Positions 2,554 through 38,665 of a stretch of DNA of 39,601 nucleotides are shown here, one piece after another. The stretch is taken from NCBI GenBank assembly GCA_964563095.1, contig CAZLVD010000001.1, positions 50,703 through 90,303 on the forward strand. The letters run 5' to 3'. Made by a program: the position numbers and the translations under genes. This DNA is from an uncultured Rickettsiales bacterium. GTDB lineage: Bacteria > Pseudomonadota > Alphaproteobacteria > CAJXXZ01 > CAZLVD01. Below the pieces are notes generated by a model. The model worked only from the letters and a program-made list of their open reading frames with translations. It searched no databases and was not told where the DNA came from. The number at the start of each line of letters is the position of its first letter. Position 1 is the first letter of the stretch.

Positions 2554-2623
2554 GAATCACTATATCAAGAGAATACTAACTTAGTGTAAAAAAATGGATT
2601 CATGTTTCCAAATAGATAATTTA

Positions 2624-4575: not shown

Positions 4576-4735
4576 TATGAAGAATCATTATCAGTGAGAA
4601 TATAAAAATTAATAAAACACTTACATTTCAAATGCTCTCAAGATTATTGAGATCCTATATGAAGAATCATTATCAGTGAGAATATAAAAATTAATAAAAC
4701 ACTTACATTTCAAATGCTCTCAAGATTATTGAGAT
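4576..4735. repeat. Tandem duplication, 78 identical nt x 2, period 82
   Basis: TATGAAGAATCATTATCAGTGAGAATATAAAAATTAATAAAACACTTACATTTCAAATGCTCTCAAGATTATTGAGAT is read at 4576 and again at 4658. Confidence 0.9.
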
Positions 4736-4754
4736 GATATCAATTCACCAAGTC

Positions 4755-6902: not shown

Positions 6903-6943
6903 AGTATACTTTCAAATATCAATCATATAATTCCTTAGAAGTA

Positions 6944-7372
6944 CTATAAGCTCAGTAAAAAATTGATTAATATAAAGCATAATGTACTGATAGTGCTATA
7001 CAAATGAGTACGTATCATGATGATCAAACATTTGCTTGTAAATAACCATGTTGTATGAGTGTGGATATAGTCAACTATAGGATATAACACAATATCCAAG
7101 AAAAGATTTACAGCAAGCATATTCAGAATAATAGGTAGTGTGAGTGTAATGTTATGAGAGAATAATGATGGCATGTATGTATTTGGTATGAGCAGACGTA
7201 TAGGTGCGAGGATTATATAACTCATTGCGATTGAGATGCTACAATATGCAAAAAATTTAATAATTTTTGAGATGTATGGATTATCTGGCGATAATTGCTC
7301 GACTGTATATGTTAATGTTTTTTCATATTTCGACTTATACAGTAATGATCTGAAGAAATCTATTATAATCAT
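6944..7372 (-). CDS. Hypothetical membrane protein
   Basis: 142-aa ORF with about 4 hydrophobic segments. No family recognised. Confidence 0.45.
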   Translation of the reverse strand: MIIIDFFRSLLYKSKYEKTLTYTVEQLSPDNPYISKIIKFFAYCSISIAMSYIILAPIRLLIPNTYMPSLFSHNITLTLPIILNMLAVNLFLDIVLYPIVDYIHTHTTWLFTSKCLIIMIRTHLYSTISTLCFILINFLLSL

Positions 7373-7414
7373 AAAAAAGAATATATAGTATAAATTTTAA
7401 TAAAGTACTGAAAT

Positions 7415-8416: not shown

Positions 8417-8556
8417 TGTACTATTGTGCAGAATAAGAGATGTAAGAGCAAGATAGCAACAGAGCTCAGCATGACATAACAGATTATATGCATAATTACG
8501 AATTACTATATAAAATAAAAGTAGCCGGACAGATGAGATATAAGATTCATTTTTAA

Positions 8557-12273: not shown

Positions 12274-13530
12274 TTAATTAAAAGTGTAAATGGCTTTTGT
12301 AGTGCTGAACATATGTTCAATAGCTCCAAGTATCACAGAGCCTGTAAGTGTTTGAGCAATATTTAATACTCTATGTGACAGAATTGTTCTAGCATATGTG
12401 TGCAGATCTATACAGATTGTATAATGCGTGGTATTCACAAATATATATTTATCTGTAATATGAGATGATATAATTTTTTCATCAAACATTAATCCATCAT
12501 ACCATGCTGCCTGAAAGACTGCTTGTAATGCTAAAGTTTTTGTATCTAATTGAAATATCTCTCTATTGGTAGAAAGAAAAATATTAGATGAGTTATTGAA
12601 TATATGTATATATGGCACAGGTGATACAGTCACTGTCACATCGTCAGGAGTTTGCTGATCATATTGATTGGTTTGAGATGCTATGTATTGATATGTGGAT
12701 TTATCTATCTGATAGACCGTATGATTTGTAATACAGTAAATGCTTTTATCATCTACATATACGTGTGCAAGTAAATGATATGGTATATAAATTGTTTGTA
12801 ATGTATTCCCGGAATGTAAATCTACTACAGATAATGATAATGGAGCAGAGAATGTATATAGGAGATTGCCATCTATACATGCATTGGTATTATATGCAAT
12901 ATCATTTGGTAAAGTAGACTCTAGATGCCAGAGTATTATCCCTTGATCTTTTAAGAAACAGGTAATCGATCCGTTATTTGATAGAGCAAGAAGCTTATCA
13001 TCTTTTTCTATAAAAGATAAAATCAGATGATGATTAATAATTTCAGTAATTTCCTGAGTATTATTATCTACAATAATCAGATTGCCTATTTCATCAGCTA
13101 TATACATTAGATTATTAATTACATGTACAGCAGTTATAGTATATTGATGGGTAAAAATGATACTAGTATTTCCATTATGATTGACGCAGACGGTATTAGC
13201 ATCTGTAAAATAGATTTTATCCTGACATGTGCTTAATTGTTGAGTTCTATAAGTTATCTTTCTATTTGTTGCTTTTTTAGTAGCTATTTTTGTTTCTGTA
13301 TAATTATGTTTTACTTCGATATCTGATATTCTATCTAAGAACTCTATGTAGTTATATATATGATTATTGTTTAGATTTTGTGTATCAGTATTGACAGTTT
13401 GCTTTGCTGTATCAGTATTGGCAGTTTGTGTTACTCCAGGAAGATCAGTGGTATTTGCATACTGAGATGTGTTTTCGGTATCTGAGTCCGCATATAAACT
13501 CACTGCATATAGTAATAAGAATTTCTGCAT
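12274..13530 (-). CDS. Secreted beta-propeller-like protein, possible BamB homolog
   Basis: Signal-like N-terminus. Repeated motifs fit PQQ/BamB-type blades (LMYIADEIGNLIIVDNNTQE; LLALSNNGSITCFLKDQGIILW; LLYTFSAPLSLSVVDLHSGNTL; IYCITNHTVYQIDKSTYQ). No lipobox Cys was seen, so the assignment is tentative. Confidence 0.45.
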   Translation of the reverse strand: MQKFLLLYAVSLYADSDTENTSQYANTTDLPGVTQTANTDTAKQTVNTDTQNLNNNHIYNYIEFLDRISDIEVKHNYTETKIATKKATNRKITYRTQQLSTCQDKIYFTDANTVCVNHNGNTSIIFTHQYTITAVHVINNLMYIADEIGNLIIVDNNTQEITEIINHHLILSFIEKDDKLLALSNNGSITCFLKDQGIILWHLESTLPNDIAYNTNACIDGNLLYTFSAPLSLSVVDLHSGNTLQTIYIPYHLLAHVYVDDKSIYCITNHTVYQIDKSTYQYIASQTNQYDQQTPDDVTVTVSPVPYIHIFNNSSNIFLSTNREIFQLDTKTLALQAVFQAAWYDGLMFDEKIISSHITDKYIFVNTTHYTICIDLHTYARTILSHRVLNIAQTLTGSVILGAIEHMFSTTKAIYTFN

Positions 13531-14150
13531 TATAATTTACTCCAATCGTACTCATTAGCATTTTCATGACCTATTTCAGATAAAATTAATCTAGGATTTA
13601 ATGATAATTCACGCTCAATATCTACAGGTATAGCTTCTGTAGATTTACTATAAATTAATTCAGCTGCAACTTTTTTCTCATGTAAAGATAATGTTTGATA
13701 AGACTGTACCAAATTGCTTTGACCTGTTCTTAGTAAGAATAATAATCTATATCTATGATCTGGATTATAAGGTTTATTTGCATAAATATCTTTAATAAAG
13801 TTAGCCAGTTGTGTGCTATAGCAATATTTAGCGTATCTCTGATCAATTTTATCTAACGTACGTAGTTTACCTTTGCTCAAATATTCCTGAATAATTATAG
13901 TATTAGCTTTATTGATTTTATTTATTTGAATATATACATATCCAGCATAAAACATACTAGCCGTAATAACTATTGCTGCAACTACAACAGTATAGAGATA
14001 TTTATATAGCAGACGCTGTCTATTATAATGTTTTGTCATGTCATGTGAATCAAAATTTGCAAACATATTCATATGATATTGTATGACTTTATATATAAAA
14101 AGCAATTCCAAAAGCAAAAAAATAGAAACATCGAATTGAAAATATATCAA
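13530..14150 (-). CDS. Hypothetical membrane-anchored protein (YfgM-like by position only)
   Basis: 206-aa ORF with one TM (LYTVVVAAIVITASMFYAGYVYI). Its stop overlaps the start of the BamB-like gene by 1 nt, which resembles yfgM-bamB synteny. Confidence 0.45.
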   Translation of the reverse strand: MIYFQFDVSIFLLLELLFIYKVIQYHMNMFANFDSHDMTKHYNRQRLLYKYLYTVVVAAIVITASMFYAGYVYIQINKINKANTIIIQEYLSKGKLRTLDKIDQRYAKYCYSTQLANFIKDIYANKPYNPDHRYRLLFLLRTGQSNLVQSYQTLSLHEKKVAAELIYSKSTEAIPVDIERELSLNPRLILSEIGHENANEYDWSKL

Positions 14151-14762: not shown

Positions 14763-17700
14763 GTGGTGGGTGCGATGACTGTAAATAAAAAACATACTGA
14801 TAAGCAAGCAAAAAATACATCTAACTTTAAGAAAAATCATATAATCCGTGGTTATTCTGGGAAAAAATGTATGCCTCAGCTGGCTAAAATAAGATCTTTT
14901 CATCATGATTCATATCGTGACTTTCTTCAATTAAATACTCCAGAAAATGCACGTTTGAAAACAGGATTGCAAAGAATTTTAGAAGAAGTGTTTCCTATCG
15001 TTAGCTATAATGGAGTAATAGAATTGAGTTTTATTAGCTATAAATTCTTACCTATTAAATATTCTATAAATGAATGCAAGAAGGGTAACTTAACATACGC
15101 TATTCCTGTAGTTATTAGATTAAAGAGAACATTATATGAAATTAGTACAGAAAAGAATGAGCTGAATAATACGGAGAAAACTGAACGTAAAATTACTGAT
15201 GTAATAGAACAGGATGTTCATTTAGGTTCAATCCCTATGATTACTGAAAATGGATCATTTATTATTAATGGTGTTGAGCGTGTGCTTGTATCTCAATTAC
15301 ATAGAGCTCCAGGTGCATTCTTCGAAGTGACAGAAGATAAGACTCATGGAAAATCTGTACATTCAGCGCTTGTAATTCCTGCAAGAGGTTCATGGTTAGA
15401 TATGCTCTTTGATTCAAAGAATATTTTACAGGCGCGTATAGATAAGAAACGTAAAGTAATCGCTACATCATTATTAATGTGCTTTAACTCTAAACGTTTA
15501 TCGGATACATATGATTTTGATAATATGGACTTAGGTTATGCTGAAAAAAATCGTAATCTTTCTATTGCTAGAGGTGGAGTATCTAAAACTGAATTATTAT
15601 CATTATTCTATAAACATAATACTGCAAAGCGTGTAAAAGACGGATGGTCTATAGATTGGATCGAATCAGAATGGTCTAATGTTAAATTAAAACATGATTT
15701 GATAGATGCTGAAAGTCATAAAGTCTTACATGAAGCTGGTACTACATTAAAAGCTAGACAATTACAAGTAATTACTAAAAGTGGCGTAAAGCATATATTC
15801 TTATCAGATGAACAATTCTTGGGTGCATTTTCTGCATGTGATATAGTAGATACCCGTAATGGTAAAATTTTAGCTTATGCAGGTGAAGAGTTTACTATGA
15901 AGAAAATGGCTGAACTAGCTGAACATATTGATAAATTCTATATTTTATCTCTCAATAGAAGCTTTAATGAATTATATTGGTTAGATACCATTAATGCTGA
16001 AAGAGCTCATACGCGTGAAGAAGCATTATTAAATATATATAAGGTAGTTAGACCAAATGAACGTCCATCATTAAATATTGCATGGGAACTATTCTATGGT
16101 ATGTTCTTAGATGCTGAAAAGTATGATTTGTCAGATGTTGGTAGAGTCAGATTGAATATGCGTTTGTTGTTAAACATAGATAAAAATCACTCTGTACTTA
16201 CAAAAGCTGATGTAATGGGTATTACTAAGATTTTACTAGAAATTAAAGCTGGAAGAAATCAAGTTGATGATCTAGATGGTTTGATGAATAGACGTGTACG
16301 TTTGGCCGGAGAATTAATCGAAGCGCAATGTTATACAGTATTAACAAAAATGACAAGATTAATTAAAGATAGAATGAGTATGTCTGATACTGCTACAGCT
16401 ACACCTCATTCCATGTTCAACTCACAATTATTTGTATCTGCTATGAAAGATTTTTTCACTAAATCGCAATTATCTCAATTCATGGATCATACAAACCCAT
16501 TGTCAGCATTGACACATGTGCGTAGATTATCAGCTCTTGGTCCTGGTGGATTAAATAAAGATAGAGCAGACGCTGGTGTACGTGATGTGCAGAGTACTTA
16601 CAATGGTAAAATCTGTATTGTGCAGACTCCTGAAGGTACAAACATTGGTTTGATTAACGCCTTTACAGTAAATGCTAATATTGATAGATATGGATTCTTG
16701 CAATCGTGTTATAACAGAGTAGTTCAAGGTAAAGTGACAGATGAAATTGTATACTTGTCTTCTATTGATGAAGCTCGTTACAATATTGCTTATGGTGATA
16801 CTGATTTAAATGAAACAGGTGAATTTGCTAATACTATTGTACCTTGTCGTAAAGGCGGAGAGGTTATTGATGTAGAAGCTACAGAAGTAGACTATATTGA
16901 TGCATCTACAAACCAAATCGTATCAGTATCTGCATCATTGATTCCATGGCTAGAAAGTAATGACGCTATGCGTGATCTTATGGGTTCTAACATGCAAGGC
17001 CAGGCAGTACCTGGTTTATATTCACAAAGTCCATTAGTTGGTACAGGTATGGAAGCATCAATACTTGAGCAATCAGGAGCTTGTATTTATGCAAAAAGAG
17101 ACGGAGAAGTTATACAGGTATTCGGTGATCGTATTGTAGTAAAAGCAGATGAGTACGATAAAGATACAGGTGTAATTGATATTTATAATATGCACAAGTT
17201 CGAGCAGTCAAACGCAGGTACATGTGTGCATCAAACAGCGGCTGTAAATGTGGGAGATAAGGTTTCCAAAGGAGATGTATTAACAAATGGATCTTCGGCT
17301 GATAGAGGTGATTTAGCTCTAGGATACAATGTTCGTGCTGCATTCTTATCCATGAATGGTATGAACTTTGAGGACTCTATTGTTATTTCAGAAAAATTAG
17401 TACAAGATGATGTCTTTACATCTATTCATTTGAAGACATTCGAAGCTACAATCAAAGATACAAAACATGGACAGCAACAAACTACAGCGGATATTCCTGG
17501 TGTGTATAGAGAAAAAGTATGGCATTTAGATGAGTCCGGTATTGTGCAAATTGGTACAACAGTTGCACCTGGAATGATTTTAGTTGGTAGAGTTACTCCT
17601 GTTGTAGAAAGCCATATATCCGGTGAAGATAAATTAATTAGAGCTATCTGTAAAGGTTCAGCATCATCAGTAAGAGATGACTCATTGTATGTACCTGCCG

Positions 17701-20700
17701 GTGTAAATGGTACCGTGATCGATGTTAAGATAATTAACAGACGTGATAATACAGATAAACGTACAATAGCATTGAAAAAAGTAGAAATCTTAGAATTGAA
17801 AAAGGATAGAGATCTAGAAATTTCTATGTTAAAGCAGAGCTTTACTCATATCTTACATGATCTTTTCAAAAATCAGATTATAGCTAAATCAAACGATGTA
17901 ATTTCTGAAGCTGAATTAGCAAAAATTCATATTGATAACTGTGATAGGATAAAATTAAAAGATACTGAAGTACAAAAACGTGTAGATTTCATGCGTGCTG
18001 AATTTGACAAAGCTGCCGCAGACATTACAGCTAAATGTGAACGTGATATAGAGAAAGTTCATGAAGGTATCGATCTACCTACAGGTGTAGAGAAGTTAGT
18101 AAAAGTTACAGTTGCTGTCAAGTGTGCAATGCAGTCAGGTGATAAATTATCAGGTCGTTATGGTAACAAAGGTATCGTATCATACATTTTACCTGTAGAA
18201 GACATGCCGTTTACTGCTGATGGTAAGCCTGTAGATATAGTCTTAAGTCCATTAGGTGTAGTATCTCGAATGAACTTGGGTCAAATTTTCGAATGTCATT
18301 TGGGTAAATCAGCTCAAGGTCTAGCGGATAGATTGCATCATATGTTATGTGGTTATGTTGCTAATGATAAGGCTGATAAAGCACTGAAAGCATTGACAGA
18401 AGCTGAAATAGCAGGAGCATTAAAGAAAACGGATGCGTCATTGGCGATATTGACAGATCAGGAACAGATTGATGAAGATATTGATTTTACAGATCATACA
18501 GTATCGCATGCTACATTACGTGAATTAGCAAATCCTAATCGTGATATCAAATCAGATATGAATCATATTCGTTCATATTTGAAAACTGTGTATGCAAAAG
18601 AACATGCTTATATAGATAGTTTATCAGATGCAGATGTGATCAAATGGAGCGTAGAATTAGCTAAAGATGGAGTGCATTTTGCATGTCCTGTATTCAATAG
18701 TATGCGTGAACAAGATATTCAAGATATGTTGACTAAAGCTGGATATGAGACGCATGGTAAAGAAACATTATACGATGGTAAAACAGGTATGCCTTATGAT
18801 AATAAAGTCAATGTAGGTATTCTATACATGTTGAAATTACATCACTTAGTTAATAAGAAAGTGCATGCACGTTCAATTGGTCCGTATAGCTCAGTTACAT
18901 TACAGCCATTGGGAGGTAAAGCTCAAGAAGGTGGACAGCGTGATGGTGAGATGGAAAACTGGGCATTGCAAGCTTATGGTGCGGCATATACATTACTTGA
19001 AATGATGACTATTAAGTCAGATGATGTATCAGGTAGAATTGCTGCATTCGAAGCTATTACTCAAGATAGAATGATTTCACATGTGTCTATTCCTGTAGCA
19101 TTCCAAGTATTCGTAAAAGAGCTTGAATCATTATGCTTAAAGGTTACATTAGGTCAACGTGAACATGCTATTCGTGATGGATGGACAAGAAAGCAAGATA
19201 TCGATACAATCGCATTATCTCTATCAAGTCCTGAGGATATACTAGCGCAGTCATACGGTGAACCTAAGAAGCCTGAAACTGTGAATTATCGTAACTACAG
19301 ACCTGAAAAAGGTGGATTATGTTGCGAGCGTATATTCGGTCCTGTAAAAGATTACGAATGTGCTTGTGGTAAGTATAAGAAGTATCAAAACAGAGGTATT
19401 ATTTGCGAACGTTGCGGTGTGGAAGTTACAACTTCTAGAGTAAGACGTGAACGTATGGGTCATATTGAATTAGTAACTCCTGTATTACATACATGGTTCT
19501 ATAGAGTATTACCAAACAGAGTAGCACTCATGTTAAATTATAGCTCGCATGATATTGATGCTATCATAAACTTTGATAAATATGTTGTCATAGATCCTAG
19601 AATGACAGTGTTCGACAAAGGTCAATTATTGACCGAAGATGAATATCAATCAGCTTGTGATGCAGAAGGTGCAGAGACATTTAAGGTAGCTACAGGTGTA
19701 GAAGCTATTGAACTCATGTTGAAAGATATAAATCTAGAAACAGAAATCAAAAAAGTGAAGAATGATTTAGAGGCTACTGGCATGAAGGCTAAACGTAAGA
19801 AATTAATCGTGCGCTTTAAGTTATTAAACGGTTTCTATCAAAATAATATTAAGCCTGAATGGATGGTATTGCGTATATTACCTGTAATGCCTGCTGACTT
19901 AAGACCAATAGTAAGCATTGAAGCTGGTCGTTTAGCTGCCTCTGATATTACAGAATTATATCGACGTTTTATTATTAGACATAACAGATTAAAACATTTG
20001 TTAGAGCTTGATGCGCCTGAAATTCTTATCAGAAATGCTAAGAGAGCACTACAAGAAGCATTGGATAACTTATTCGATAATACAAGAAGAGATAGACCTG
20101 TATTGGGTGCAAATAACAGACCATTGAAGTCTATTTCCGATAAAATCAAAGGTAAAGATGGTATGATTAGACAGAACTTGATCGGTAAACGTGTGGATTA
20201 CTCAGGTCGTTCTGTAATTACTGTAGATCCTACATTACAATTACATCAATGTGGATTACCTAGATCCATGGCACTTGAATTATTCAAGCCATTCGTATGT
20301 GCTGCATTGATTAAAGATGGTGTAGTCTTAACCTTACGCGATGCAAACTTAATGATTGAAGAAGAGCGTCCAGAGGTATGGGATGTGCTAGAGTCAGTTG
20401 TATATAGACATCCTGTGCTATTAAACCGCGCTCCTACATTGCATAGACTCAGTATTCGTGCATTCGAAGTAGTATTGGTAAATGGTAGTGCTATTAGATT
20501 ACATCCGTTAGTATGTTCTGGTTTCAATGCTGACTTCGATGGTGATCAGATGGCTGTGCATATTCCATTATCTGTAGAAGCTCAATTAGAAGCACGTGTC
20601 AGTATGCTAGCATCAAACAATATCTTACATCCTGCTGATGGTCGTGTAGCTGTATTACCTTCAAAAGATGTGGTATTGGGAATTTTCCATTTAACAAATA

Positions 20701-23234
20701 TGCCTGAAACATCAAAGAATCCATATAAATTTATGAATTTAGAAGATGTATTGCATGCATTTGATCATAATGTAATTAAGAGTCAGCAACATATACAGTT
20801 ATTACATGATGGAAAATGGATGGATACCACGGCTGGTAGAGTAATTTTCTACAAGATTCTACCTCAGCATCAGGAAATTACATTTGAATCTGTCAACAAA
20901 GTAATACGTAACAAAGATATGGCGGCATTGTTTAGAAATATATATAATATTTGCGGACAAGAAGCTACAGGATTACTTGCAGACAAGCTCATGCGTCTAG
21001 GATTTGAATATGCTACAAAATCTGGTATTACATTCGCTCTAAATGACTTACGTATTCCTCAAATGAAGACAGAATTAGTTGCTACTGTAAATGAAAAAGT
21101 ACAATCGCTGCAACAGCAATACTTAGAAGGTATGATTTCTGATAACGAAAGACATAACGCTGCTCAGGACCTTTGGATGCAATGTATGGATAGTCTGTCT
21201 GAGTATGTAAAATCAGGGATGACTGAAAATGGTCAAAATGATATATACGCCATGATTGATTCTGGTGCTAGAGGTACAAAACAACAGTTAATGCACATGA
21301 TTGGTATGAGAGGTCTTGTGGTAACTACTACTGGTAAAGTGCTTGAACATATGATTCAAGAGTGTTATAAAGAAGGTTTGACTATCAGATCATTCTTCGA
21401 TACAACTCATGGTACTAGAAAAGGTGTTGCCGATACTGCTCTTCGTACAGCTGTTGCCGGTTACTTGACTAGAAGATTGGTTGACGTAGCTCAGGATTGT
21501 GTAGTCTTAGAAGATGATTGCGGATGTACTGATGGATTAGTAAAACATGCTATATATCAAGGTGATACTGTAGTAGAACATCTATTTGCTCGTTTAGAGG
21601 GTAGAGTATTAGCTCATGATATTAAAGATGAACATGATGTTACAATAATATCTGCAGGAACATTAATAGATAAAACACATGCTGATATTATACAAAAACA
21701 TAATGTGAAATCTGCTACTATCCGTTCAGTATTGACATGTCAGACGAAAAATGGTGTATGTGCGGCTTGTTATGGTATAGATCTTGGACGTAACAAACTT
21801 GTTGGATTTGGTACAGCTGTCGGTGTGATAGCAGCTCAATCTATCAGTGAGCCAAGTACGCAGTTGACATTACGTACATTCCATCAGGGTGGTGCTGCTC
21901 ATAAAGATGTTGAAGAATCTACAATCATGAGCCCTATTGCTGGTATATTAACGTATAATGAGACTCATACAGTAATAAATAGACATGATGAAGCTATTGT
22001 CATTCGTAAGCATTTAGAATGTGTATTGAAAGATACTCATGATAATGAATTTAAATATACTATTCCTTATGGTGCTAAAGTATGTTTCAAGAACAAGTCT
22101 AAGATAGATAAGGGTGATATGATCGCTGAATGGGATCCGTATTCCATGCCAATTATTACAGAATCTACAGGTATAGCTAAGTACATAGATTTACTAGATG
22201 ATGTGACTATTAAGAAGAGCGAAGGTGATTCTGGTATTATGACTGTGACAGATTGGCGTAAGTTAAGCGTACAGCGTGAATACAGACCTGCAATACAGCT
22301 GATTAATGAGGATGGCACACCTATTATTACTGAATATGGTGCTGATTTGAAGTATTATTTACATGCTGGCGCTATGATTATGATAAAAGATGGACAGCAG
22401 ATCTTGCCTGGTGATGTCATTGCTAAGTTATCTAAAGCTCAGTCAAAATCTAAAGATATTACAGGTGGATTGCCAATGATTTCTGATTTATGTGAAGCTC
22501 GTGAGCCTGTAAATAAAGCTATCTTGTCCATGACAGCAGGTACAGTAAGATTTATTAAAGATAAACGTCAAACAAGACGTATTGCTGTACAGGATGCCGA
22601 TGGTAATACTACAGAATATGCAATTCCATCTCATGCGCATTTACTAGTGCACGAAGGCTATAATGTATCTAAAGGTGATATGTTAACGGATGGACGTATA
22701 TATTCATTTGATATATTGCGTATCTTAGGCACAAAACCTATGGTAGAATTCTTCATTAATGAATTGCAAGATATTTATAGATCTCATGGTATTTCTGTGA
22801 ATGAAAAACATATTGAGATCATAGTGAAATATATGTTGCAAGCTGTTGAAGTAACTGATCCAGGCGATAGCACATACTTACCTGGTGAACGTGTAAATAT
22901 GGAAGAATTTGAGAAGACAAATGCGGAATTATTGGCTAAGGGTGAAAAGATTGCTCATAGCATACCTCATCTGCAGGGTATTTCTGATAGATCGCTTGTG
23001 AAATCAGGATTATCTTCAGCTGCCTTCCAGGATTCAATTAAGTATATGTTGAATGCTATATATAGTGGCTTTACCGATGATTTAACCAGTCATGTTAAGA
23101 CTGCTATGATGACGGCTAATTTGGCTAATATCGGTACAGGTGCTTATGTATATAAATTACATAATCAATATTACGCAACGCAAGCTCAGCAGAGCGCAGT
23201 GATCGATGAAGCTATTACAGAAGTTGCTGTGTAA
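14763..23234 (+). CDS. rpoBC: DNA-directed RNA polymerase beta-beta' fusion protein
   Basis: Single 2823-codon ORF. The beta part contains [17 protein letters not shown] and [29 protein letters not shown]. The beta' part contains [54 protein letters not shown] and the C-terminal domains. The junction is at about 19150-19210. Confidence 0.95.
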   Translation: [2823 protein letters not shown]

Positions 23235-23494
23235 ATAATACAATGATAGATGAGTATATTATATGTATAATGAATATGTTGTATATGTATATGTTCTGAT
23301 CTTCTATAAACATGTTTACTCTAATAAATTTTTCTTCATATAGCATATTAATATACATGCTCTCTGAATGATTGATTTTCTGATTATGTAAATATCGAAG
23401 CAGATTGTATTGTATCGAAAACATATGTATGAATAGTATTGTATAAATTACTATTTGATACATAACACCATATATGAGACTACTATTATTCTCA

Positions 23495-25189
23495 CTAGAT
23501 AATTTGATATTGTGCATCTGTATGCATTAGAGTATTAGCTTTCAATGTTTCTCCAAAGATTTTCGCAAATAAATATGATTGTACTGGGAATTTTGGATTA
23601 GTATATATTTTATACATAAAACAGGGTATTGCAGTAAGTATATTTTCTATCACAGTATGTGTGACAGTATTACAGCATTCAATGCGTTCAATATACTGCT
23701 CTATATTTACATGATCTGTATTAAGATGTCTATAGAGTTGTAGTAATTGATTTAAAATTACGGATGCTTTTTTATAGCTAAATTGCCCTAAATAATTGAT
23801 ATGTAAAGCATGTATAGCTGCTGTGTATTCAGACGAGGGTAGTCCGGCTTTACTTTTACTCATAGTTTCAATATGTGTGCATTTTAAACCTGCTACCGGA
23901 TCATTCATATTCCATGTTGTACCTACTGGAGCGTTTAGATTTTGATTATAATATAAGACTTTAGGTGTAACAATTTCTTCGCTTTGATCTATTTCATTTA
24001 CAGTATCTTTTGAAGCATCTGTATTACCTTTTGAACTCAATCCAAGCATAAATTGCTCATCATTCTTAAATAAAATCCATGTATCTGTACTGTTCATGCC
24101 ATCTAAGTAATTATGATAGATTTTATCATGACTATGTAATGCATCAGTTTTCACTACGCTTGTAATTTTACTTACCGAATGAATCACTACATTTGGATCT
24201 AAAGATGTAATACGTTCAAAGCTACTCAAATGCTGTGTGGTAATGGGAGTTGCATGACCTTCAAAGATATTTAATGCTGGAGTACAGTTTGTCAGGAATA
24301 TATTCTTGTGCAAGGTGACTGATTTAGTACTTACAGTATCCGCTAGAGGAATGATAATAGTTTGATCTGTATTAATCACATCTATATCTGCATCTTCTAA
24401 TATAATATCAAAGAACATGAATTTTTTGTAACATACCATAAATTCATACAATAAACTGAAACGATTGTCTTCATGACGCTGAGTAGTCATTTCTGTAGCT
24501 GACAGATGATCTGATGATTCAAAACCTATTGCTTTGATTTTAAATTTGGTCAACATTGCTTTAAAATTTTTCAATATATATATATTCTTGTCAGATCTAT
24601 CAAAAATCAATTTATATATAGTCAGTGCATTAGTATAATTTGTATTGATATATAATCTCACTACATTACGTGTAATATTATACATTGGTATCTCAAGAGC
24701 TGTTTTACATGAGAAATTATATAAATATCCATCAGTAAACTTTGCGGACCCAATTTCGATTGTATTGAGATCTACAGGATACAATGTTCTCATATGCAAT
24801 TGAGATGACAATACATTATTATTTACAGTTTGATCAAGAGGATTATCTGTATATAGATCTGTATTACGTGGAATAACATAACCTGTGTTTTTTGGTGAAG
24901 GGGTAAGCTGAAAAATACCATGTCCTGGCGTATCATAGACCAAATGCGGAGCTAATATCTGTAAAATATTTTGATTAATATAATTAAACTGAGTATCTAT
25001 TTTTTGTGAAATACGTCCTGTTAGAAATGCAAAGGATTCTATCAATTTGGACATATGAGGATCTCTAAATTCATTCAAATGTATACCTAATTTACTTGCT
25101 ATATGAGGATACTGCGCTGCGAAAGTTTGACCTTCTTCATTCAAATACTCTAGTTCTTTTAGATAATATTGCAATTGTTGGTTGCTCAT
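23495..25189 (-). CDS. tssF: Type VI secretion system baseplate subunit TssF (ImpG/VasA family)
   Basis: The N-terminus LQYYLKELEYLNEEGQTFAAQYPHIASKLGIHLNEFRDPHMSKLIESFAFLTGRISQKIDTQF...ILAPHLVYDTPGHGIFQLTP matches the TssF hallmark (YY..EL.YL...G.eFA..YP.iA..L......DP.vErLlEgfAFL.aR...KlD..fP......L..LyPhyL.PiPs..i.qf.P). It is 564 aa and intact. Confidence 0.8.
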   Translation of the reverse strand: MSNQQLQYYLKELEYLNEEGQTFAAQYPHIASKLGIHLNEFRDPHMSKLIESFAFLTGRISQKIDTQFNYINQNILQILAPHLVYDTPGHGIFQLTPSPKNTGYVIPRNTDLYTDNPLDQTVNNNVLSSQLHMRTLYPVDLNTIEIGSAKFTDGYLYNFSCKTALEIPMYNITRNVVRLYINTNYTNALTIYKLIFDRSDKNIYILKNFKAMLTKFKIKAIGFESSDHLSATEMTTQRHEDNRFSLLYEFMVCYKKFMFFDIILEDADIDVINTDQTIIIPLADTVSTKSVTLHKNIFLTNCTPALNIFEGHATPITTQHLSSFERITSLDPNVVIHSVSKITSVVKTDALHSHDKIYHNYLDGMNSTDTWILFKNDEQFMLGLSSKGNTDASKDTVNEIDQSEEIVTPKVLYYNQNLNAPVGTTWNMNDPVAGLKCTHIETMSKSKAGLPSSEYTAAIHALHINYLGQFSYKKASVILNQLLQLYRHLNTDHVNIEQYIERIECCNTVTHTVIENILTAIPCFMYKIYTNPKFPVQSYLFAKIFGETLKANTLMHTDAQYQII

Positions 25190-25246
25190 GATGATATTGT
25201 GTAGTGCAAAAGTTAATTTTTGATGATCGCTTATGAAAAAAGATTA

Positions 25247-25306
25247 CATATGACTGCTGTGGAGATAAGCTTTCATATAATTGCATATGATTACTGTGGA
25301 GATAAG
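25247..25306. repeat. 23-nt direct repeat x 2 (period 37) in the tssF / tssJ-like divergent spacer
   Basis: CATATGACTGCTGTGGAGATAAG (25247-25269) and CATATGATTACTGTGGAGATAAG (25284-25306) differ by 2 mismatches. Confidence 0.85.
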
Positions 25307-25372
25307 AATATTTTTGTGATTTTCTCATTCATATTAACAAATTATTAGATTTTTATTGGAAAATCAAATAAG

Positions 25373-25882
25373 ATGTTACGTGTATTATTATTATTATTCT
25401 TACCTGTGATTGCGGAGATGGATATTGGCTTTGGTATAGGTCTGCATAGTTTTAGATCGGAAGCGGGTATGATATTAGATGGATCTGCTATAAATATTCA
25501 TATAGTGCTTGCATATAGTGCAGATTTAGTGGCAAAGCTCAAGAATATGCGTTCTGAAGAATATTTTGCTCAAGTTAGTTCATTAAAAAATGCTCATCCT
25601 AAAGAGATGTATGTATGGACTTTCGAACAGCAACCTCAATCTAATAATCCTGTAGAGATACTATTATGGCCAGCAAATCAAGTAACGTGCTTGCAGGCAT
25701 TTGTTTTTGTAGATTATCGTAATGGTAAAGATAATCGTGTAACTGTTCCTCGCTCTACCAGACATCTTACATTAAGATTGGGACAGAATGAGATTGATGC
25801 TATTATTTTACGTGATGAGAGAGTAGCGGGTAAGCCTACGAAAGCCGTAGAAGTTGCTCCAAAAGCCACAATTTTTGGATAA
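25373..25882 (+). CDS. Small secreted protein, possible TssJ-like (T6SS outer-membrane component); tentative
   Basis: 169 aa with signal-like MLRVLLLLFLPVIA. The size and beta-rich pattern are loosely colinear with TssJ/SciN: INIHIVLAYSADLVAKL (cf the vvvRiyqLks..aF block), AFVFVDYRNGKDNRVTVP (cf vvAaYrd......Wr.vvp) and LTLRLGQNEI. There is no lipobox Cys. Confidence 0.35.
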   Translation: MLRVLLLLFLPVIAEMDIGFGIGLHSFRSEAGMILDGSAINIHIVLAYSADLVAKLKNMRSEEYFAQVSSLKNAHPKEMYVWTFEQQPQSNNPVEILLWPANQVTCLQAFVFVDYRNGKDNRVTVPRSTRHLTLRLGQNEIDAIILRDERVAGKPTKAVEVAPKATIFG

Positions 25883-26906: not shown

Positions 26907-27734
26907 TTACTTTCTTCTTTGACGAATACGATTATCTGTACGTTTATTATTACGTGTTTTGAAGCCTTTAGCTGGGATACCTGTTCTAGAACAAGGATGA
27001 CGACCACCTGAAGATTTACCATTACCACCACCCATTGGATGATCAATAGGGTTCTTGGCAACAGCTCTAACGCGAGGTCTAATACCTTTATGTCTATTTT
27101 TACCAGCTTTTGATAAATGCTCATTCATATGATCGCCATTAGATACAATACCGATTGTAGCCATGCAGTTACCATGTATTGTGCTTAATTCACCAGAAGG
27201 CATGCGTACTAATACAGAAGTACCCTCGTGACCAAGAATTTGCAATGAAGATCCAGCTGATTTAGCTATCTGACCGCCTTTACCAATCTTTAATTCTACA
27301 TTATGAACGAAGAAACCGAGAGGTATATTTTTGATCTGTGTAGCATTACCATCTTTCATTGGAATCGCATCACCAGACATAATTTTATCACCTGTTTTCA
27401 TCTTGTCTGTAGATAAGATGTATGCTTTAGCTCCATCTTCATACTGCACTAATGCTAAAAATGCTGTTCTATTTGGATCATATTCAAAACGTACTACTGT
27501 ACCTTCTTTATTCCAATGAACTAAACGCTTACTATCAACCACACGTAATACTTTCTTATGTGCTGCTGAACCGCGTCTAGGTGATGTGATATGACCGTGA
27601 TGGTTACGACCACCTGTTCTTGTTACGCCAAATGTTAATGATTTTTCTGGCTTACCTCTCCATAATCCACGTTTATCTACAAGTGTTAAATGTCTTCTAG
27701 ATGACGTGGTAGGCTTATAATGTATTAATGCCAT
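26907..27734 (-). CDS. rplB: 50S ribosomal protein L2
   Basis: 275 aa with typical L2 blocks: GRNHHGHITSPRRGS, VVRFEYDPNRTAFLALVQYEDG, GNGKSSGGRHP. Confidence 0.95.
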   Translation of the reverse strand: MALIHYKPTTSSRRHLTLVDKRGLWRGKPEKSLTFGVTRTGGRNHHGHITSPRRGSAAHKKVLRVVDSKRLVHWNKEGTVVRFEYDPNRTAFLALVQYEDGAKAYILSTDKMKTGDKIMSGDAIPMKDGNATQIKNIPLGFFVHNVELKIGKGGQIAKSAGSSLQILGHEGTSVLVRMPSGELSTIHGNCMATIGIVSNGDHMNEHLSKAGKNRHKGIRPRVRAVAKNPIDHPMGGGNGKSSGGRHPCSRTGIPAKGFKTRNNKRTDNRIRQRRK

Positions 27735-27862
27735 GTTTTACTCCTCGATAAGTATTCCATTTATTGTAGCAGGCTCGATATAATATAGCAAGAGTATATT
27801 CGTATTTTTTACAGATGATTAGCAGAGTTTATTGTTCGCGAGAAAAAATATACTAGTCAGAG

Positions 27863-27897
27863 CGCATGCAAGACGTATGCAAGAGCGCATGCAAGAA
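27863..27897. repeat. GC-rich 12-nt motif x 3 (GCGCATGCAAGA / CGTATGCAAGA / GCGCATGCAAGA) in the rplW-rplB spacer
   Basis: Read directly. Each unit carries the palindrome (G)CATGC. It sits in an otherwise AT-rich 247-bp gap. Confidence 0.8.
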
Positions 27898-27981
27898 TGT
27901 GTATGAATGTTTGCTAGTGAATGCAGTAAACATATCAAATCATATTAATATAAAATTTATTGACTCGCGTGAAGTATTTAT

Positions 27982-28347
27982 TTATGCCTGTAAGAAATCA
28001 AAATTTGCATCAGCTGGAAGGAAAATCATAGCTTTCTTGATCTTACCTGTATTTACTTCTACTGTTTTATACTTACTTCCTGCACGCTTTCTTAATGATT
28101 TCGTTTTACCTGGCAATGTCACAGTATTTACAGCTAATGGTTTGATATTAAACAAATTTTCGAAAGATGTTTTGATAGCTAATTTTGTAGCATCCAACTG
28201 TACTTGTACAACATACACTTTACGATTACCTAAATCATAAGCCTTTTGTGTGCTCCATGCGCCTATAAAAAGACTTTGTTGCCAATGATTAGAATAACGT
28301 TTTGCTTGCTCATTTTTCAAAGCTTTGATATATTTTGGCATAGTCAT
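27982..28347 (-). CDS. rplW: 50S ribosomal protein L23
   Basis: VVQVQLDATKLAIKTSFENLFNIKPLAVNTVTLPGKTK...KKAMIFL matches the L23 core (v..V...AtK.eIK.a.e.lF.vkv..VNT....GK.k...wKKA.V.L). Confidence 0.85.
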   Translation of the reverse strand: MTMPKYIKALKNEQAKRYSNHWQQSLFIGAWSTQKAYDLGNRKVYVVQVQLDATKLAIKTSFENLFNIKPLAVNTVTLPGKTKSLRKRAGSKYKTVEVNTGKIKKAMIFLPADANFDFLQA

Positions 28348-28855: not shown

Positions 28856-29512
28856 ATGAATAAAATATGTTATCATGAAAAATTATTCGCATGTTGCATG
28901 TTTTCACAATCTTTTGTTTTTTTATTTAAACTAGTGCATGCTAGATATGACTATACTGATGGTCGCTGGTATTGTAATTACTCACCAAATTTATATACAT
29001 TCGATTTACTGAATGAACAAGGTGTATCATTGAGATTATCACAGAGACATACTTTAAAACATTCAAGTCCGTTTTATTGGGATTTACCTGTTGCGTCATG
29101 GGAATATTATCTAAATACAAAAGATGCTTCGACTCCATGTATGATGCTTGCTGGTATATATTTCTTGCGATACTTCAGTCAGAGATATTATAACTATTTT
29201 ACCAAGAGATACAGTGATATTAATGCTAAAACTGACAAAACTGAAGAAGACATGAAATTTAAATCTAGAAGCATGTATATAGAAATTGGATTATTAATAT
29301 TAAGCTTGCGTCTGTATTCGATAGGACATGAATTTCATAGAACTGCAAGAACAATGAAAAGATATTATTTCGGGGTTTGTCTCAAATGGTTTGCTGCTTT
29401 GTTATTCTGGTCATTGATAGAAATAGAATATTATAAGTTCTATAAATGTAAATCAATAAGTGCAGCAGATACAGTATCTTCTACTACACCTGATAATATA
29501 TCAAATACTTAA
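28856..29512 (+). CDS. Hypothetical membrane protein (ORFan)
   Basis: 218-aa ORF, aromatic-rich, with about 3 hydrophobic segments. No family recognised. Confidence 0.45.
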   Translation: MNKICYHEKLFACCMFSQSFVFLFKLVHARYDYTDGRWYCNYSPNLYTFDLLNEQGVSLRLSQRHTLKHSSPFYWDLPVASWEYYLNTKDASTPCMMLAGIYFLRYFSQRYYNYFTKRYSDINAKTDKTEEDMKFKSRSMYIEIGLLILSLRLYSIGHEFHRTARTMKRYYFGVCLKWFAALLFWSLIEIEYYKFYKCKSISAADTVSSTTPDNISNT

Positions 29513-33472: not shown

Positions 33473-34456
33473 GTGCGTACTTTAATATTGTTAAGTTTAC
33501 ATCTTTGCAGTATAGCGGTTATTAAACAGAAGAATCATGTGCGTTTTATGAATATTAATAAGACTCAGCACGTATCATTAAAACAGAAGCTAAAATATAA
33601 AAGAGATCATACTAAAACTGTTATATGTAATCATAAAAAGAAAGCGATAGTGATTGCAGGTGCTGTAGGATTAGGATTAATAGTAAAAAATATTCTAATG
33701 AAGAGTAGCATTGAGAGTCAAATACTCGAAGAATACAACGATAATGATTATATACTCGAAACAGCAATGAGATCTGAAAACAGAACTGATCTTGGTATGA
33801 CAGAGTCATCTTTCTACAGAACTGAAATTACCCGAAAGGATTATCAAAAAGAGGTCAATAAACAATATATAGGTATTATTATTCAGTATTTAACTGATGT
33901 ACATAATATCATAAGCTCCAAGAAGTTGTTTCTATTCAAAATGCACGAATTAATTTGGGGAGATATGCGTACAAGAGGTCTATGCTTAGTAGGTATTTTA
34001 AATAATCATTATTTTACATTAATCTCATATCCAGATGCATTAGTACAGATGGAATTGAATAAAAAGAGAGCTAATTACGATGAGGATATTCGAGTATTCA
34101 TGGAGGAAAAAGAAAATTTTTCTAAAATATTTCGTACTCTTTCTACTCAATTAATACGCATATATCAGAGAGGTTTGCAAGTAATGAAGAGACATGATGC
34201 ATTTCGATATGATGCTCATGGTATTATACATCCTAATATGACAAAGCTAATCAAAAATCGTAAGAATATTTACACAAACTTGAAAAACATTATAGCTAAT
34301 GCTGTAGAAATTTTTGCGCGAGATGAATTTAAATGGGGTTTAGCTATATTGATACATTATCCTGAAATACATGAATTAGCAGAAAAATTAGCACCAAAGA
34401 AAAAACAGAAATGGCTGGAAGAAAATAAAGAGATATTATCAAAGAAAAAATATTAA
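33473..34456 (+). CDS. Hypothetical membrane-anchored protein (ORFan)
   Basis: 327-aa ORF with one clear TM (AIVIAGAVGLGLIV) and a Lys-rich C-terminus. No family recognised. Confidence 0.5.
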   Translation: MRTLILLSLHLCSIAVIKQKNHVRFMNINKTQHVSLKQKLKYKRDHTKTVICNHKKKAIVIAGAVGLGLIVKNILMKSSIESQILEEYNDNDYILETAMRSENRTDLGMTESSFYRTEITRKDYQKEVNKQYIGIIIQYLTDVHNIISSKKLFLFKMHELIWGDMRTRGLCLVGILNNHYFTLISYPDALVQMELNKKRANYDEDIRVFMEEKENFSKIFRTLSTQLIRIYQRGLQVMKRHDAFRYDAHGIIHPNMTKLIKNRKNIYTNLKNIIANAVEIFARDEFKWGLAILIHYPEIHELAEKLAPKKKQKWLEENKEILSKKKY

Positions 34457-35554: not shown

Positions 35555-37051
35555 TTAGCCTCTTGATTCAGTGTTAGCATTGTTATTTGTAGTCTTTTCA
35601 ATATATTGTATACCTGCGAGCCAATCTATACATTTTCTCGGGAATGATCTATTATTAATATTTTCAGATAATTCCTGTTGTAGAGTTGGAGCTAACTCTC
35701 TCATGAAATCTCTATATGACATATTTGTCTTTTTTAGCAATCGATCGTATATCTCTGGATATTTTTCTCTTGAAATATTATTTAATTGAAATGTACTTAT
35801 TTTTTGTTCATTGGTAATATGATCTATATGTAATCTTGTAAATCTACTTGCTAAGATATTGTTCATTGCTTTATGAGGATAGTTTGTTGTGAATACAAAA
35901 ATAATATTATGATTAGGATCAGTTGAATCTAATAGATTGGATATGAATTTAGCCTTATGATTGTTTATATCAGCAGTAATATTAGCTGCAGGAGTTGTAA
36001 CATATGTCTGATAATACTGTGGATCCGATACTAATTTATCATCAGTTGTAGTAGGACTTGCATTATATAATAAGTTTCCACGAATGTCTAGATATCTATC
36101 ACATTCATCCATCAGTACTACTATCGGTCTAGATTGAGCACGGTTTCTGATATACTTCATAAATTTCATAAAATTAGCTGTATTCATGTTATTTTGTGTC
36201 TCTGTATCACTTAATGCCGCACTTTGCATAAAATTCTTCATCATATTGACAGCACCAGTAGGCTCATGATATTCAAATAATTCAGCTCTTAACTGGTTAG
36301 CCATACATTGTGCGAAGAATGTTTTACCTGTGCCTGGAGGTCCCATGAGCATAAAAGATCTTACGCTTTTGTTTGGTTGAGCTGGTACTCTTCCTATAAA
36401 TCTATCTATCCATGAGCTACGTTCTGCAATTATTTGATTATAGCCAGCTATACCAGCCTTCTGACATTCAGGATTTAAGCCTCCATCAGTTATCTTTAAA
36501 CTATGACGTATCTTACTTGCTACAGGTTTATCCTGATATTCTTGCCAAGCATTCCATACTTTTATAGTACCTAGCGAAGTGATAATAAACATTAAACCTG
36601 GAGATTTTTGAAGTTTATCGATTACTTGACATGTAGCTGTGAATTTATTTGAATTCCATTGATTATACAATTCTTTTATTTCTGTAGTTATAGATTTAGG
36701 CTGTGGTTTTGTAGGAGTTTGCAATAATTTAGCTATGGTATTTAGAGCTACTATTAATTCATCTCTATTCAGATTTGTAGCCTGATTCATATGATTTGTC
36801 ATAGCTTGTGTTTTATTATCAGAACTCTGCGCTATATTATTGTTAGATTGTGTTGGTTCGATTATTTGCGCTTTATCTGTCGTATTGTTCACAGATTGAT
36901 TGTTAATGTTCTGCTTTTTTATAGTAGTTTTTTTTAGCTTTTTTGTTGTGATATCTGTTGGTGTTTCTGTAGATTGACTAGCATTTGCCAAGCAAATAGC
37001 ATATAATAAGATTTTGTCATGCATACTGTAGTATACTGCACATAATCTCAA
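35555..37051 (-). CDS. AAA+ ATPase with signal/anchor-like N-terminus and low-complexity linker (ORFan architecture)
   Basis: Walker A (LMGPPGTGKT), Walker B (IVVLMDECD), sensor-1-like FVFTTN and an arginine motif (LASRF). The N-terminus MHDKILLYAICLANASQS is followed by an N/Q/T/K-rich stretch. It starts 9 nt after the ruvC stop. Confidence 0.75.
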   Translation of the reverse strand: MRLCAVYYSMHDKILLYAICLANASQSTETPTDITTKKLKKTTIKKQNINNQSVNNTTDKAQIIEPTQSNNNIAQSSDNKTQAMTNHMNQATNLNRDELIVALNTIAKLLQTPTKPQPKSITTEIKELYNQWNSNKFTATCQVIDKLQKSPGLMFIITSLGTIKVWNAWQEYQDKPVASKIRHSLKITDGGLNPECQKAGIAGYNQIIAERSSWIDRFIGRVPAQPNKSVRSFMLMGPPGTGKTFFAQCMANQLRAELFEYHEPTGAVNMMKNFMQSAALSDTETQNNMNTANFMKFMKYIRNRAQSRPIVVLMDECDRYLDIRGNLLYNASPTTTDDKLVSDPQYYQTYVTTPAANITADINNHKAKFISNLLDSTDPNHNIIFVFTTNYPHKAMNNILASRFTRLHIDHITNEQKISTFQLNNISREKYPEIYDRLLKKTNMSYRDFMRELAPTLQQELSENINNRSFPRKCIDWLAGIQYIEKTTNNNANTESRG

Positions 37052-37060: not shown

Positions 37061-37522
37061 CTATATGCAATGAAATAATGCGCAGGCTAAAGCATCTGTA
37101 GCATCAAAATTATTCCGAATATCTATATTCAATATACCGCATACATATTGTGCGACGAGATCCTTTTCAGCTCCTCCATCACCTGTAATTTTTTTCTTAA
37201 TAACACGAGTAGGTACATTAATCAGTTCGCAATTATATCTTGCAGAGCATAACACCGCCATAGATCTTGCCATACCTAATTTAATTATAGTATTACGATT
37301 GATACTAGCGAAAATCTCCTCTATCACCATAACATTTGGTTTATAGATAGATAAAAAATGACTAAGTTGCTCGAATAAAGAATTCAGTCGATTTTCCAGA
37401 TTATGAGTAGGCTTAGTCATCATGACTGCATGGGTAATGTATTTAGGTCTATTATTTACAAGTTCTATTAAACCTACTCCCATTTTATGCAAACCAGGAT
37501 CTATACCTACAATTAATGTCAT
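37061..37522 (-). CDS. ruvC: Crossover junction endodeoxyribonuclease RuvC
   Basis: N-terminal IVGIDPGLHKMGVGLIE (catalytic Asp), internal VMVIEEIFAS (Glu) and C-terminal DATDALACAL (Asp pair). 153 aa. Confidence 0.88.
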   Translation of the reverse strand: MTLIVGIDPGLHKMGVGLIELVNNRPKYITHAVMMTKPTHNLENRLNSLFEQLSHFLSIYKPNVMVIEEIFASINRNTIIKLGMARSMAVLCSARYNCELINVPTRVIKKKITGDGGAEKDLVAQYVCGILNIDIRNNFDATDALACALFHCI

Positions 37523-37701
37523 TTATTAATTACAGTATATATAGTTATATTTAAAAACTAAAATACTTTGTAGTAAAAAACTTTTTTAACTAAATAAGAG
37601 TATGATAGTAATGAATGCTGTGAAAAAATCTAGAAAATCATATAAGTCTATTTTTATTTTGAGAAAAACATGTTACAATAGTGCCAACGAGAGAGGCTAT
37701 A

Positions 37702-38127
37702 ATGTTAGTTGATAGATTGGCTAATGTATTGACATCCATACGAAATGCAGGTATGAGAGGGTTAGATACTGTGTCTGTTAATGTAAATAAACATGTGCTA
37801 GAAGTATTGAATGCTCTAAAATCACATGGATGTATCGGAGTTATTACGAGTTATGATAATGGTACTGCTGCACAATGTGTGAAAGTTGAATTGCTTTATA
37901 CAAAGAATCATGAGCATGTAATACAGCAAGTTCAACGTGTATCAAGAGTATCGAATAGAATTTATAAAGATGTGAAAGAATTAAAACGTTTATCATATCG
38001 TTTTATTGATAAATTGTATTTGGTTTCTACAAGCAAAGGTATTTTATCTGCGCAAGAAGCTGCAAAGCAAAATCTTGGCGGTGAAGTATTGTTGTTTGTG
38101 TCCAAAATAGGACAGGGGGTGATGTAA
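37702..38127 (+). CDS. rpsH: 30S ribosomal protein S8
   Basis: MLVDRLANVLTSIRNAGMRG matches the S8 N-terminus (D.iaDmLTrIRNa). The C-terminus has STSKGILS..EA...N.GGEVL. Start set at ATG 37702, preceded by GAGAGG; the track ORF begins at GTG 37681. Confidence 0.9.
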   Translation: MLVDRLANVLTSIRNAGMRGLDTVSVNVNKHVLEVLNALKSHGCIGVITSYDNGTAAQCVKVELLYTKNHEHVIQQVQRVSRVSNRIYKDVKELKRLSYRFIDKLYLVSTSKGILSAQEAAKQNLGGEVLLFVSKIGQGVM

Positions 38128-38128
38128 G

Positions 38129-38665
38129 ATGTCAAAAATCGGAAAGAGACCTGTAACAATACCAGCTGGTGTAAAAGTTCATTTCGAACACGGAGTATGT
38201 ACTGTAAGTCACGGAGCTAACAAGCAAACAGTTAATGTACCTTATTTCTTAGATTGTAAAATCGAAAAAGATATATTAAATGTAGTGCCTTTGAGATTAC
38301 GTGATAAGCATATGCGTGCAATGTGGGGTACAATTCGTGCATTGATAGCAAATGCTGTAGAAGGTTTGACAAAAGGATACGAAAAGAATCTTGAATTAAA
38401 AGGTCTTGGTTATAAGGCTGAAGTAAAAGGTTCAAATACAGAATTATTCTTAGGATACAGTCATATAGTGAAGTTTGCGAATCCAGAAGATGTAAAAATC
38501 AAGTGCGCAAAGCCTACACATATCGTAATTAATGGTCATGATAAGCAACGTGTTGGACAAGTAGCTGCAAACTTAAAGAGACTCAGAAAACATAATAGAT
38601 ACAAGGATTATGGTATTCATGAAATGGGTCAATGGCGTTATGTCAAGGTTCGTAAGAGCAAGTAA
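38129..38665 (+). CDS. rplF: 50S ribosomal protein L6
   Basis: MSKIGKRPVTIPAGVKV..., GLTKGYEKNLELKGLGYKAEVKG, LGYSH. It begins 1 nt after the rpsH stop, as in spc operons. Confidence 0.92.
   Translation: MSKIGKRPVTIPAGVKVHFEHGVCTVSHGANKQTVNVPYFLDCKIEKDILNVVPLRLRDKHMRAMWGTIRALIANAVEGLTKGYEKNLELKGLGYKAEVKGSNTELFLGYSHIVKFANPEDVKIKCAKPTHIVINGHDKQRVGQVAANLKRLRKHNRYKDYGIHEMGQWRYVKVRKSK

Follow-up and report, generated by a model that had tools for sequence, protein, structure and literature searches.

Type VI secretion systems (T6SSs) have been reported in almost all Holosporales, including those with the smallest genomes (PMC11909080; 10.1101/719211). In this order the T6SS genes occupy four or more separate loci, with tssG and tssF still paired (PMC8163844), and TssJ and Hcp have frequently been described as "missing" (10.1101/719211; PMC11909080). 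In the Finniella and Holosporaceae metagenome-assembled genome (MAG) loci that we checked, the tssF-tssG pair was found apart from tssB, tssC, tssE, hcp and clpV. The second close comparison is the H3-T6SS of Pseudomonas; there, lip3 (PA2364) and hsiB3 point away from each other, and the last gene of the left operon is the 361-aa sfa3 (PMC3804575). The gene order of this complete 13-gene locus in P. aeruginosa is lip3/PA2364-hsiJ3-dotU3-icmF3-hsiA3-sfa3, divergent from hsiB3-...-hsiG3-hsiH3-clpV3, and the corresponding layout (lip3-tssK-L-M-A divergent from tssB-C-hcp-E-F-G) was also observed in Bryobacteraceae and metagenome loci. Here we analyzed a stretch of 39,601 nucleotides (the window) of contig CAZLVD010000001.1, deposited as an uncultured Rickettsiales bacterium (GCA_964563095.1), which carries the T6SS baseplate gene tssF among housekeeping genes. 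A first-pass annotation, made from the letters alone, had described T6SS genes as rare in reduced symbionts, a view that the Holosporales reports have made out of date.

The locus resembles both systems in part. Like the Holosporales/Holosporineae symbionts (Ca. Bodocaedibacter vickermanii, Cytomitobacter, Nesciobacter), the source has T6SS genes in a reduced, AT-rich genome of the alphaproteobacterial symbiont type, a likeness which does not by itself establish membership. Unlike in Holosporales, tssF lacks tssG and is paired divergently with a tssJ-like gene, and the window TssF is set apart from that group, Finniella included, by being at most 30% identical to any TssF in GTDB. Like the H3-T6SS, the window has a homolog of the lip3-slot protein encoded divergently from a tssF-containing unit; unlike the Pseudomonas locus, the site has no tssB, tssC, hcp, tssE, tssG, clpV or tssK-L-M-A. 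We consider it probable (roughly 70%) that the pair belongs to a T6SS with dispersed genes, whose remaining components lie elsewhere in the genome.

The identity of tssF, as called in the first-pass annotation, was confirmed. The open reading frame (ORF) of 564 codons begins with ATG and has no internal stops. Its product matched PF05947 (T6SS_TssF) with 196.8 bits (E 8e-58, cut-off 25), residues 1-509 being aligned with profile positions 1-530 of 608. The protein database contained five members of the same clade, with 76, 75, 53, 49 and 33% identity to the window protein, followed by canonical TssFs at no more than 29%. A profile of the clade matched the solved Escherichia coli TssF structures 6GIY, 6GJ1 and 6N38 in the PDB (E 4e-25) over residues 1-342. 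An AlphaFold (AF2) model built from 26 homologs (predicted local distance difference test, pLDDT, 83.5; predicted template-modeling score, pTM, 0.78) was superposed by Foldseek on chain H of 6N38 with an E value of 5e-27 and template-modeling (TM) scores of 0.69/0.72 over 563 columns, at 14-15% identity in the structural alignment. The runners-up were contractile-injection-system and phage gp6-like baseplate proteins. This full-length superposition indicates that all three TssF domains are present, so that the predicted fold is that of TssF from enteroaggregative E. coli (6N38, 6GIY, 6GJ1), unlike which the window gene has no tssG, tssE or tssK next to it.

Conservation within the protein was uneven. 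Residues 1-95, where the first-pass annotation had recognized the family hallmark, are the most conserved segment (53-88% identity in the clade and 39% against 20 canonical TssFs; elsewhere 13-21%), and the residues which are invariant among canonical TssFs are retained. In the T4 gp6/gp7 and TssF/G/E structures, this N-terminal helical segment packs with partner subunits into the core bundle of the wedge. Window TssF may assemble with TssG, TssK and TssE into a wedge. The gene encodes a real, intact and selectively maintained but divergent TssF.

The gene divergent from tssF had been described as encoding a small secreted protein, and tssF as solitary. The latter does not strictly hold, because profile and gene-slot evidence places this neighbor itself in a T6SS family as a diverged TssJ of the Lip3 (H3-T6SS) type. 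Its product has a hydrophobic, signal-like N-terminal segment, and searches of Pfam, NCBIfam and PDB sequences with the ORF were empty. A profile of three orthologs, run against 1.84 billion representative proteins, retrieved 65 relatives of 117-340 aa, and the family consensus carries an L-x-G-C lipobox. None of these 65 proteins matches the Pfam TssJ model, and none of the ten members tested matches NCBIfam. One member was found in a T6SS locus of Bryobacteraceae, where it overlaps the tssK start.

Gene context pointed in the same direction. A metagenome scan with a 4-sequence alignment yielded 34 loci, and the family member is located directly upstream of tssK in all 29 for which downstream sequence could be read, as well as in one GTDB locus; tssK is followed by tssL, tssM and tssA as far as the sequence extends. 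For a non-circular test, a hidden Markov model (HMM) was built from only the four orthologs of the reduced clade and run against 12,390 ORFs of T6SS loci. All 35 ORFs in the tssJ slot upstream of tssK-L-M-A ranked first (E 3e-12 to 0.1, the last with E 1.7). With phmmer, the window protein alone matched slot ORFs at E 1e-7. Comparison of the 75-member family with four PGAP-annotated TssJ proteins by hhalign gave a probability of 94.3% (E 1e-7) over 129 columns starting from the lipobox, yet the family had no match among Pfam, NCBIfam or PDB sequences. The four orthologs aligned with 89.5% probability to the lip3-slot protein, which PGAP labels "hypothetical", of a plasmid-borne H3-type locus of P. 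aeruginosa; the gene layout of this locus is the one published for the H3-T6SS. The AF2 model of the window protein was poor (pLDDT 55), and its Foldseek matches to 4A1R (Serratia Lip; E ~1) and to IglE were non-significant, a hint at most. The gene product is thus predicted to be a diverged Lip3-type TssJ on the basis of sequence profiles and gene context, not of a confident structure.

Canonical TssJ (SciN/Lip, PF12790; 4A1R, 3RX9) is similar in size, N-terminal signal, the lipobox of the family consensus and the slot upstream of tssK, and differs in that the Pfam and NCBIfam TssJ models match no Lip3-type protein tested and in that the window copy has no lipobox cysteine. In Pseudomonas the family already has a name (lip3), yet it lies outside the standard models. 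Slot proteins of this type occur upstream of tssK in H3-like loci of Acidobacteria, Azospirillum, Paraburkholderia, Cupriavidus and P. aeruginosa (loci L097-L130, L075 and L132, in the last at 8869..9345). The window copy is instead followed by a MazG-like gene and rplB, not by tssK-L-M. Solitary copies amid housekeeping genes were also seen in two other AT-rich contigs (L008, 979..1527; L010, 6729..7262). These distant members and that of L009 were considered as T6SS loci and rejected by context; the genes around the L009 copy are operon-like, but their proteins are bactofilin-like or unassigned. The contig of one more distant member (P0153) is 698 bp long.

Both genes are under strong constraint. 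Ratios of nonsynonymous to synonymous substitution rates (dN/dS), calculated by the Nei-Gojobori method among the window and relatives L002 and L003, were 0.06-0.09 for tssF and 0.10-0.13 for the tssJ-like gene; as dS for tssF was 1.1-2.6, which is near saturation, these figures are approximate. The same comparison gave 0.08-0.09 for rpoBC, 0.06 for rplB and 0.10 for pth, with 0.17-0.29 for the HIT and MazG-like genes. The constraint on tssF is on a par with that on core housekeeping genes.

The clade orthologs of TssF come from independent SRA/ENA assemblies, and the genomic context could be read for four of them (L002-L005), in none of which tssE or tssG lies beside tssF. Three assemblies built from different SRA runs share the order rpoBC, tssF, 167-169-aa ORF, MazG-like gene, rplB, and the same synteny from rpoBC to rplB is present in a Logan re-assembly of the window genome. 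The divergent 167-169-aa partner is retained in three of the four contexts (L002, L003 and L004); in the 49%-identity relative tssF is still divergent from a 167-aa ORF. L005, the 33%-identity relative, is without the partner and has tssF between rpmH-rnpA and an EamA gene. The nearest canonical relative was found in an alphaproteobacterial MAG of 61% guanine-plus-cytosine (GC) content, with the order tssB-C-hcp-x-tssE-tssF-tssG-...-clpV-vgrG-x-PAAR. In L005 the gene directly after tssF encodes an EamA transporter (8519..9412), and such a gene also comes after tssG in a canonical alphaproteobacterial locus (L006, 12843..13763); this placement may have been inherited from an ancestral locus that then lost tssG.

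Other T6SS genes were sought in ~49 kb of the same genome (the window plus 9 kb to its right, L013, and 2 kb to its left, L012) and, together with the contigs of relatives and distant family members (L002-L005, L008 and L010), in a set of 480 ORFs of at least 50 aa covering ~110 kb. The queries were single sequences from three full T6SS protein sets, family HMMs from 83 canonical loci, and HMMs rebuilt with metagenome loci (39-78 members each). Several results weigh against a dispersed but complete system. First, these searches, which readily detect TssF, found only TssF and no other tss gene among the 480 ORFs; neither the 9 kb on the right nor the 2 kb on the left, which contain rpmB and an integrase, held one. 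Second, tssG, the obligate partner of TssF, is missing beside tssF. As the first-pass annotation had noticed, neither tssE nor tssG adjoins the gene, and the family HMMs detected neither among the window ORFs of at least 50 aa, nor in L013 or L002-L005. In the canonical loci, tssG adjoins tssF in 74-78 of 83 and tssE does so in 65 of 83. Third, TssF scored 190.1 bits against NCBIfam TIGR03359, under the equivalog cut-off of 260.3, which we read as the mark of a divergent yet genuine TssF. Fourth, the lipobox cysteine is missing in the window, L002 and L003 copies of the TssJ-like protein, while L004 has a cysteine at residue 8. The three copies without the lipobox cysteine may have a signal peptide or a signal anchor instead of being lipoproteins.

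Even so, we favor a T6SS with scattered genes. TssJ binds TssM in the envelope (PMC3213119), and TssF is part of the cytoplasmic TssK-F-G wedge (PDB 6N38). TssF and the TssJ-like protein thus belong to separate sub-complexes and make no contact with one another, and since both are kept under strong constraint, the parts connecting them have probably been kept too. A complete machine with its other genes elsewhere is the simplest account of a pair conserved under purifying selection across deep divergence. In the proposed scenario, tssF and the tssJ-like gene would be two genes of one T6SS, divergent from the spacer of 183 bp, with TssF acting as a cytoplasmic baseplate wedge subunit and the TssJ-like protein capping the TssJLM membrane complex in the periplasm or outer membrane. 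The pair would represent the collapsed center of an H3-T6SS-type locus, from which tssB to tssE were taken out, the genes between and beyond the pair having been moved or removed in a heavily rearranged, reduced genome. The other tss genes would lie elsewhere, and the machine would still assemble and fire. Gene dispersal is the rule in the window genome, where ribosomal-protein genes and secY are scattered, and the split T6SS loci of Holosporales offer a precedent. The organization would be more fragmented than any that we found described; the kind of system is known, the lineage is new, and its TssJ is one that the standard models miss.

The scattered-gene reading had been one of three offered in the first-pass annotation and is the best supported of them. 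A second, a remnant under selection, was right as to selection. The third, repurposing, we regard as unlikely but worth weighing. It states that the contractile machine was lost and that TssF, with or without the TssJ-like protein, was kept to serve some other function, for instance as a scaffold in the envelope or in host interaction, or in a radically minimized apparatus without TssG and TssE. This idea stays alive because of the missing tssG, the lost lipobox and a layout which is what an in situ deletion of tssB to tssE would leave. In agreement with it, the tssF and tssJ-like genes are the only T6SS genes seen in all the sequence scanned, tssF is uncoupled from tssG, unlike in the great majority of canonical loci (the 74-78 of 83 given above) and in Holosporales, TssF falls under its equivalog cut-off, and diplonemid symbionts are reported to have "modified" T6SSs without some parts (10.1101/719211). 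On the other hand, TssF retains the full three-domain fold and the canonical invariant residues, its strongest constraint lies in the partner-binding N-terminus, and two proteins of separate sub-complexes are both strongly constrained. Moreover, with a genome of several hundred kb and 11-12 other genes spread across it, a sample of ~49 kb devoid of them would by our estimate not be improbable. We know of no precedent for a stand-alone TssF function. Rather less likely again is the specific form of this idea in which the clade dismantled its contractile T6SS and kept only the pair of TssF and a de-lipidated TssJ, for a non-classical function or a radically minimized apparatus.

That tssF is a decaying relic of a lost T6SS, not yet pseudogenized, is very improbable. 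The gene is isolated from every other tss gene in a shrinking genome, as such a relic would be, but an intact ORF is found in six lineages, the most distant at 33% identity; the predicted fold is complete, blocks upstream are conserved and the dN/dS values (0.06-0.09) are like those of core housekeeping genes. Purifying selection together with conservation in at least five genomes excludes decay, and the relaxed selection which the first-pass annotation had entertained was not observed. That the gene stems from a chimeric assembly, from contamination or from a recent horizontal transfer is the least probable reading of all, since, although T6SS genes are often mobile and an integrase is encoded just beyond the left end of the window, the synteny recurs in three independent assemblies and in the Logan re-assembly, the tssF region has the GC content of its flanks, and the closest TssF outside the clade is at most 30% identical.

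If the scattered-gene reading is true, this would be the most fragmented T6SS organization found, with tssF uncoupled even from tssG, and it would offer a handle on how the stoichiometric expression of multi-subunit machines is maintained after operon dissolution in reduced genomes. The Lip3-type TssJ, a by-product of the analysis, may matter more than the fragmented organization itself. A TssJ invisible to Pfam and NCBIfam may underlie some reports of missing TssJ or of non-canonical T6SSs in Holosporales and in other H3-like systems. "Solitary" secretion genes should be judged only once their unannotated neighbors have been profile-searched. A literature search on TssF, endosymbionts and genome reduction found nothing specific to this combination.

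To place the lineage, we compared TssF and RpoB with known sequences. A scan of the GTDB r232 species representatives with the clade TssF alignment detected no member of the reduced clade. A broader TssF alignment gave matches from many phyla, none above 30% identity, and hence no taxonomic signal: the TssFs of Finniella, Marivibrio and non-proteobacterial MAGs are all equally far (24-30%) from that of the window. A TssF search of plasmids gave distant matches only (23-25% identity). RpoB is ~44% identical to that of diverse Alphaproteobacteria, including Sphingomonas and Sneathiella, which agrees with the alphaproteobacterial affinity first proposed and is uninformative for finer placement. 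Judging from these comparisons, the source appears to be a fast-evolving alphaproteobacterium of an uncatalogued lineage.

Table 1. Features of the tssF locus (coordinates refer to the window)
Feature	Coordinates	Strand	Description	Evidence
fused rpoB-rpoC	14763..23234	(+)	single 2823-aa ORF	
spacer 3' of tssF	23235..23494	.	260 bp, AT-rich, up to the convergent rpoBC stop; place expected for tssG	
tssF	23495..25189	(-)	T6SS baseplate subunit, 564 aa, full length	Pfam, PDB sequence match, AF2/Foldseek, dN/dS
divergent intergenic region tssF/tssJ-like	25190..25372	.	183 bp	spacer alignment, sequence read
tssJ-like gene (Lip3 / H3-T6SS type)	25373..25882	(+)	predicted product of 169 aa, divergent from tssF	HMM, phmmer, hhalign, dN/dS

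The spacers on both sides of tssF and the convergent end of rpoBC (table 1) are as the first-pass annotation had given them. In the spacer 3' of tssF, no tssG remnant was detected by tblastn with TssG or by the TssG family HMM. A 100-aa ORF that spans it (23215..23517) is of low complexity and had no family match. Alignment of the divergent spacer from the window, L002, L003 and L004 revealed two conserved blocks, one beside tssF (25198..25227) and one beside the tssJ-like gene (25331..25369), which are presumed from their conservation to be promoter or 5'-untranslated-region elements. A sigma-70 scan of this spacer showed no enrichment over shuffled sequences. A sigma-54 promoter, suggested by a conserved TTGCA, was rejected, the GG at the -24 position being missing. 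The same spacer contains a 23-nt direct repeat, CATATGAYTRCTGTGGAGATAAG, at 25247..25269 and 25284..25306, with two mismatches and a 37-nt period; it is specific to the window and is not conserved in L002-L004.

Cryptic tss genes were also considered among the unassigned ORFs. Those at 220..3106, 6944..7372, 12274..14150 (BamB-like), 28856..29512 and 33473..34456 of the window were rejected for want of any single-sequence or family-HMM match, as were the unassigned ORFs of L002, L004, L005 and L013. To the right of the window (~3-10 kb from its end), L013 encodes a 759-aa ATPase (6554..8833, minus strand) beside a 408-aa ORF with no assigned function; its two classic AAA domains (PF00004) led us to reject it as ClpV. 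L013 also encodes a 443-aa protein of the sigma-54 enhancer-binding type (12318..13649, plus strand), which lacks the GAFTGA loop when aligned with the Sfa3-type regulator of the P. aeruginosa H3-T6SS locus.

The window as a whole has a GC content of 32%, and the tssF region, at 0.30, equals its flanks. In keeping with the housekeeping neighborhood described at first, the window consists of a scrambled set of genes: trpS, secY, infC, asd, an ABC transporter, rnpA, an MFS transporter, a BamB-like gene, HIT, fused rpoB-rpoC, a MazG-like gene, rplB, rplW, pth, trxB, argS, an OmpR-type regulator, an AAA protein, ruvC, rpsH, rplF and several lineage-specific membrane ORFs. The ribosomal-protein/secY operons are dissolved, with rplW-rplB, rpsH-rplF and secY found separately amid unrelated genes (4755..6107, 26907..28347 and 37681..38665), and in L002 a 348-aa ORF of no assigned function (4073..5119) lies between rplW and rplB. 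The rpoBC fusion is kept in relatives L002 (2812 aa) and L003 (2834 aa), and the best database matches to its junction (P0027-P0029) likewise join RpoB C-terminal and RpoC N-terminal domains.

A few other genes deserve mention. At ~1-2 kb left of the window start, L012 encodes a 418-aa phage-type integrase (1224..2480) beside rpmB in an otherwise housekeeping genome. Five small ORFs on the same strand near the left end of the window (220..687 and 1096..1464, minus strand, together with 1815..3106) had no family matches and probably encode lineage-specific membrane or secreted proteins. Two of them are paralogous, sharing the N-terminus MKYALLALATTI..EAKI and 31% identity. Finally, a 498-aa protein with a single AAA domain and only weak DnaX/RFC-like matches is encoded at 35555..37051 (minus strand), directly downstream of ruvC (37061..37522) on the same strand.

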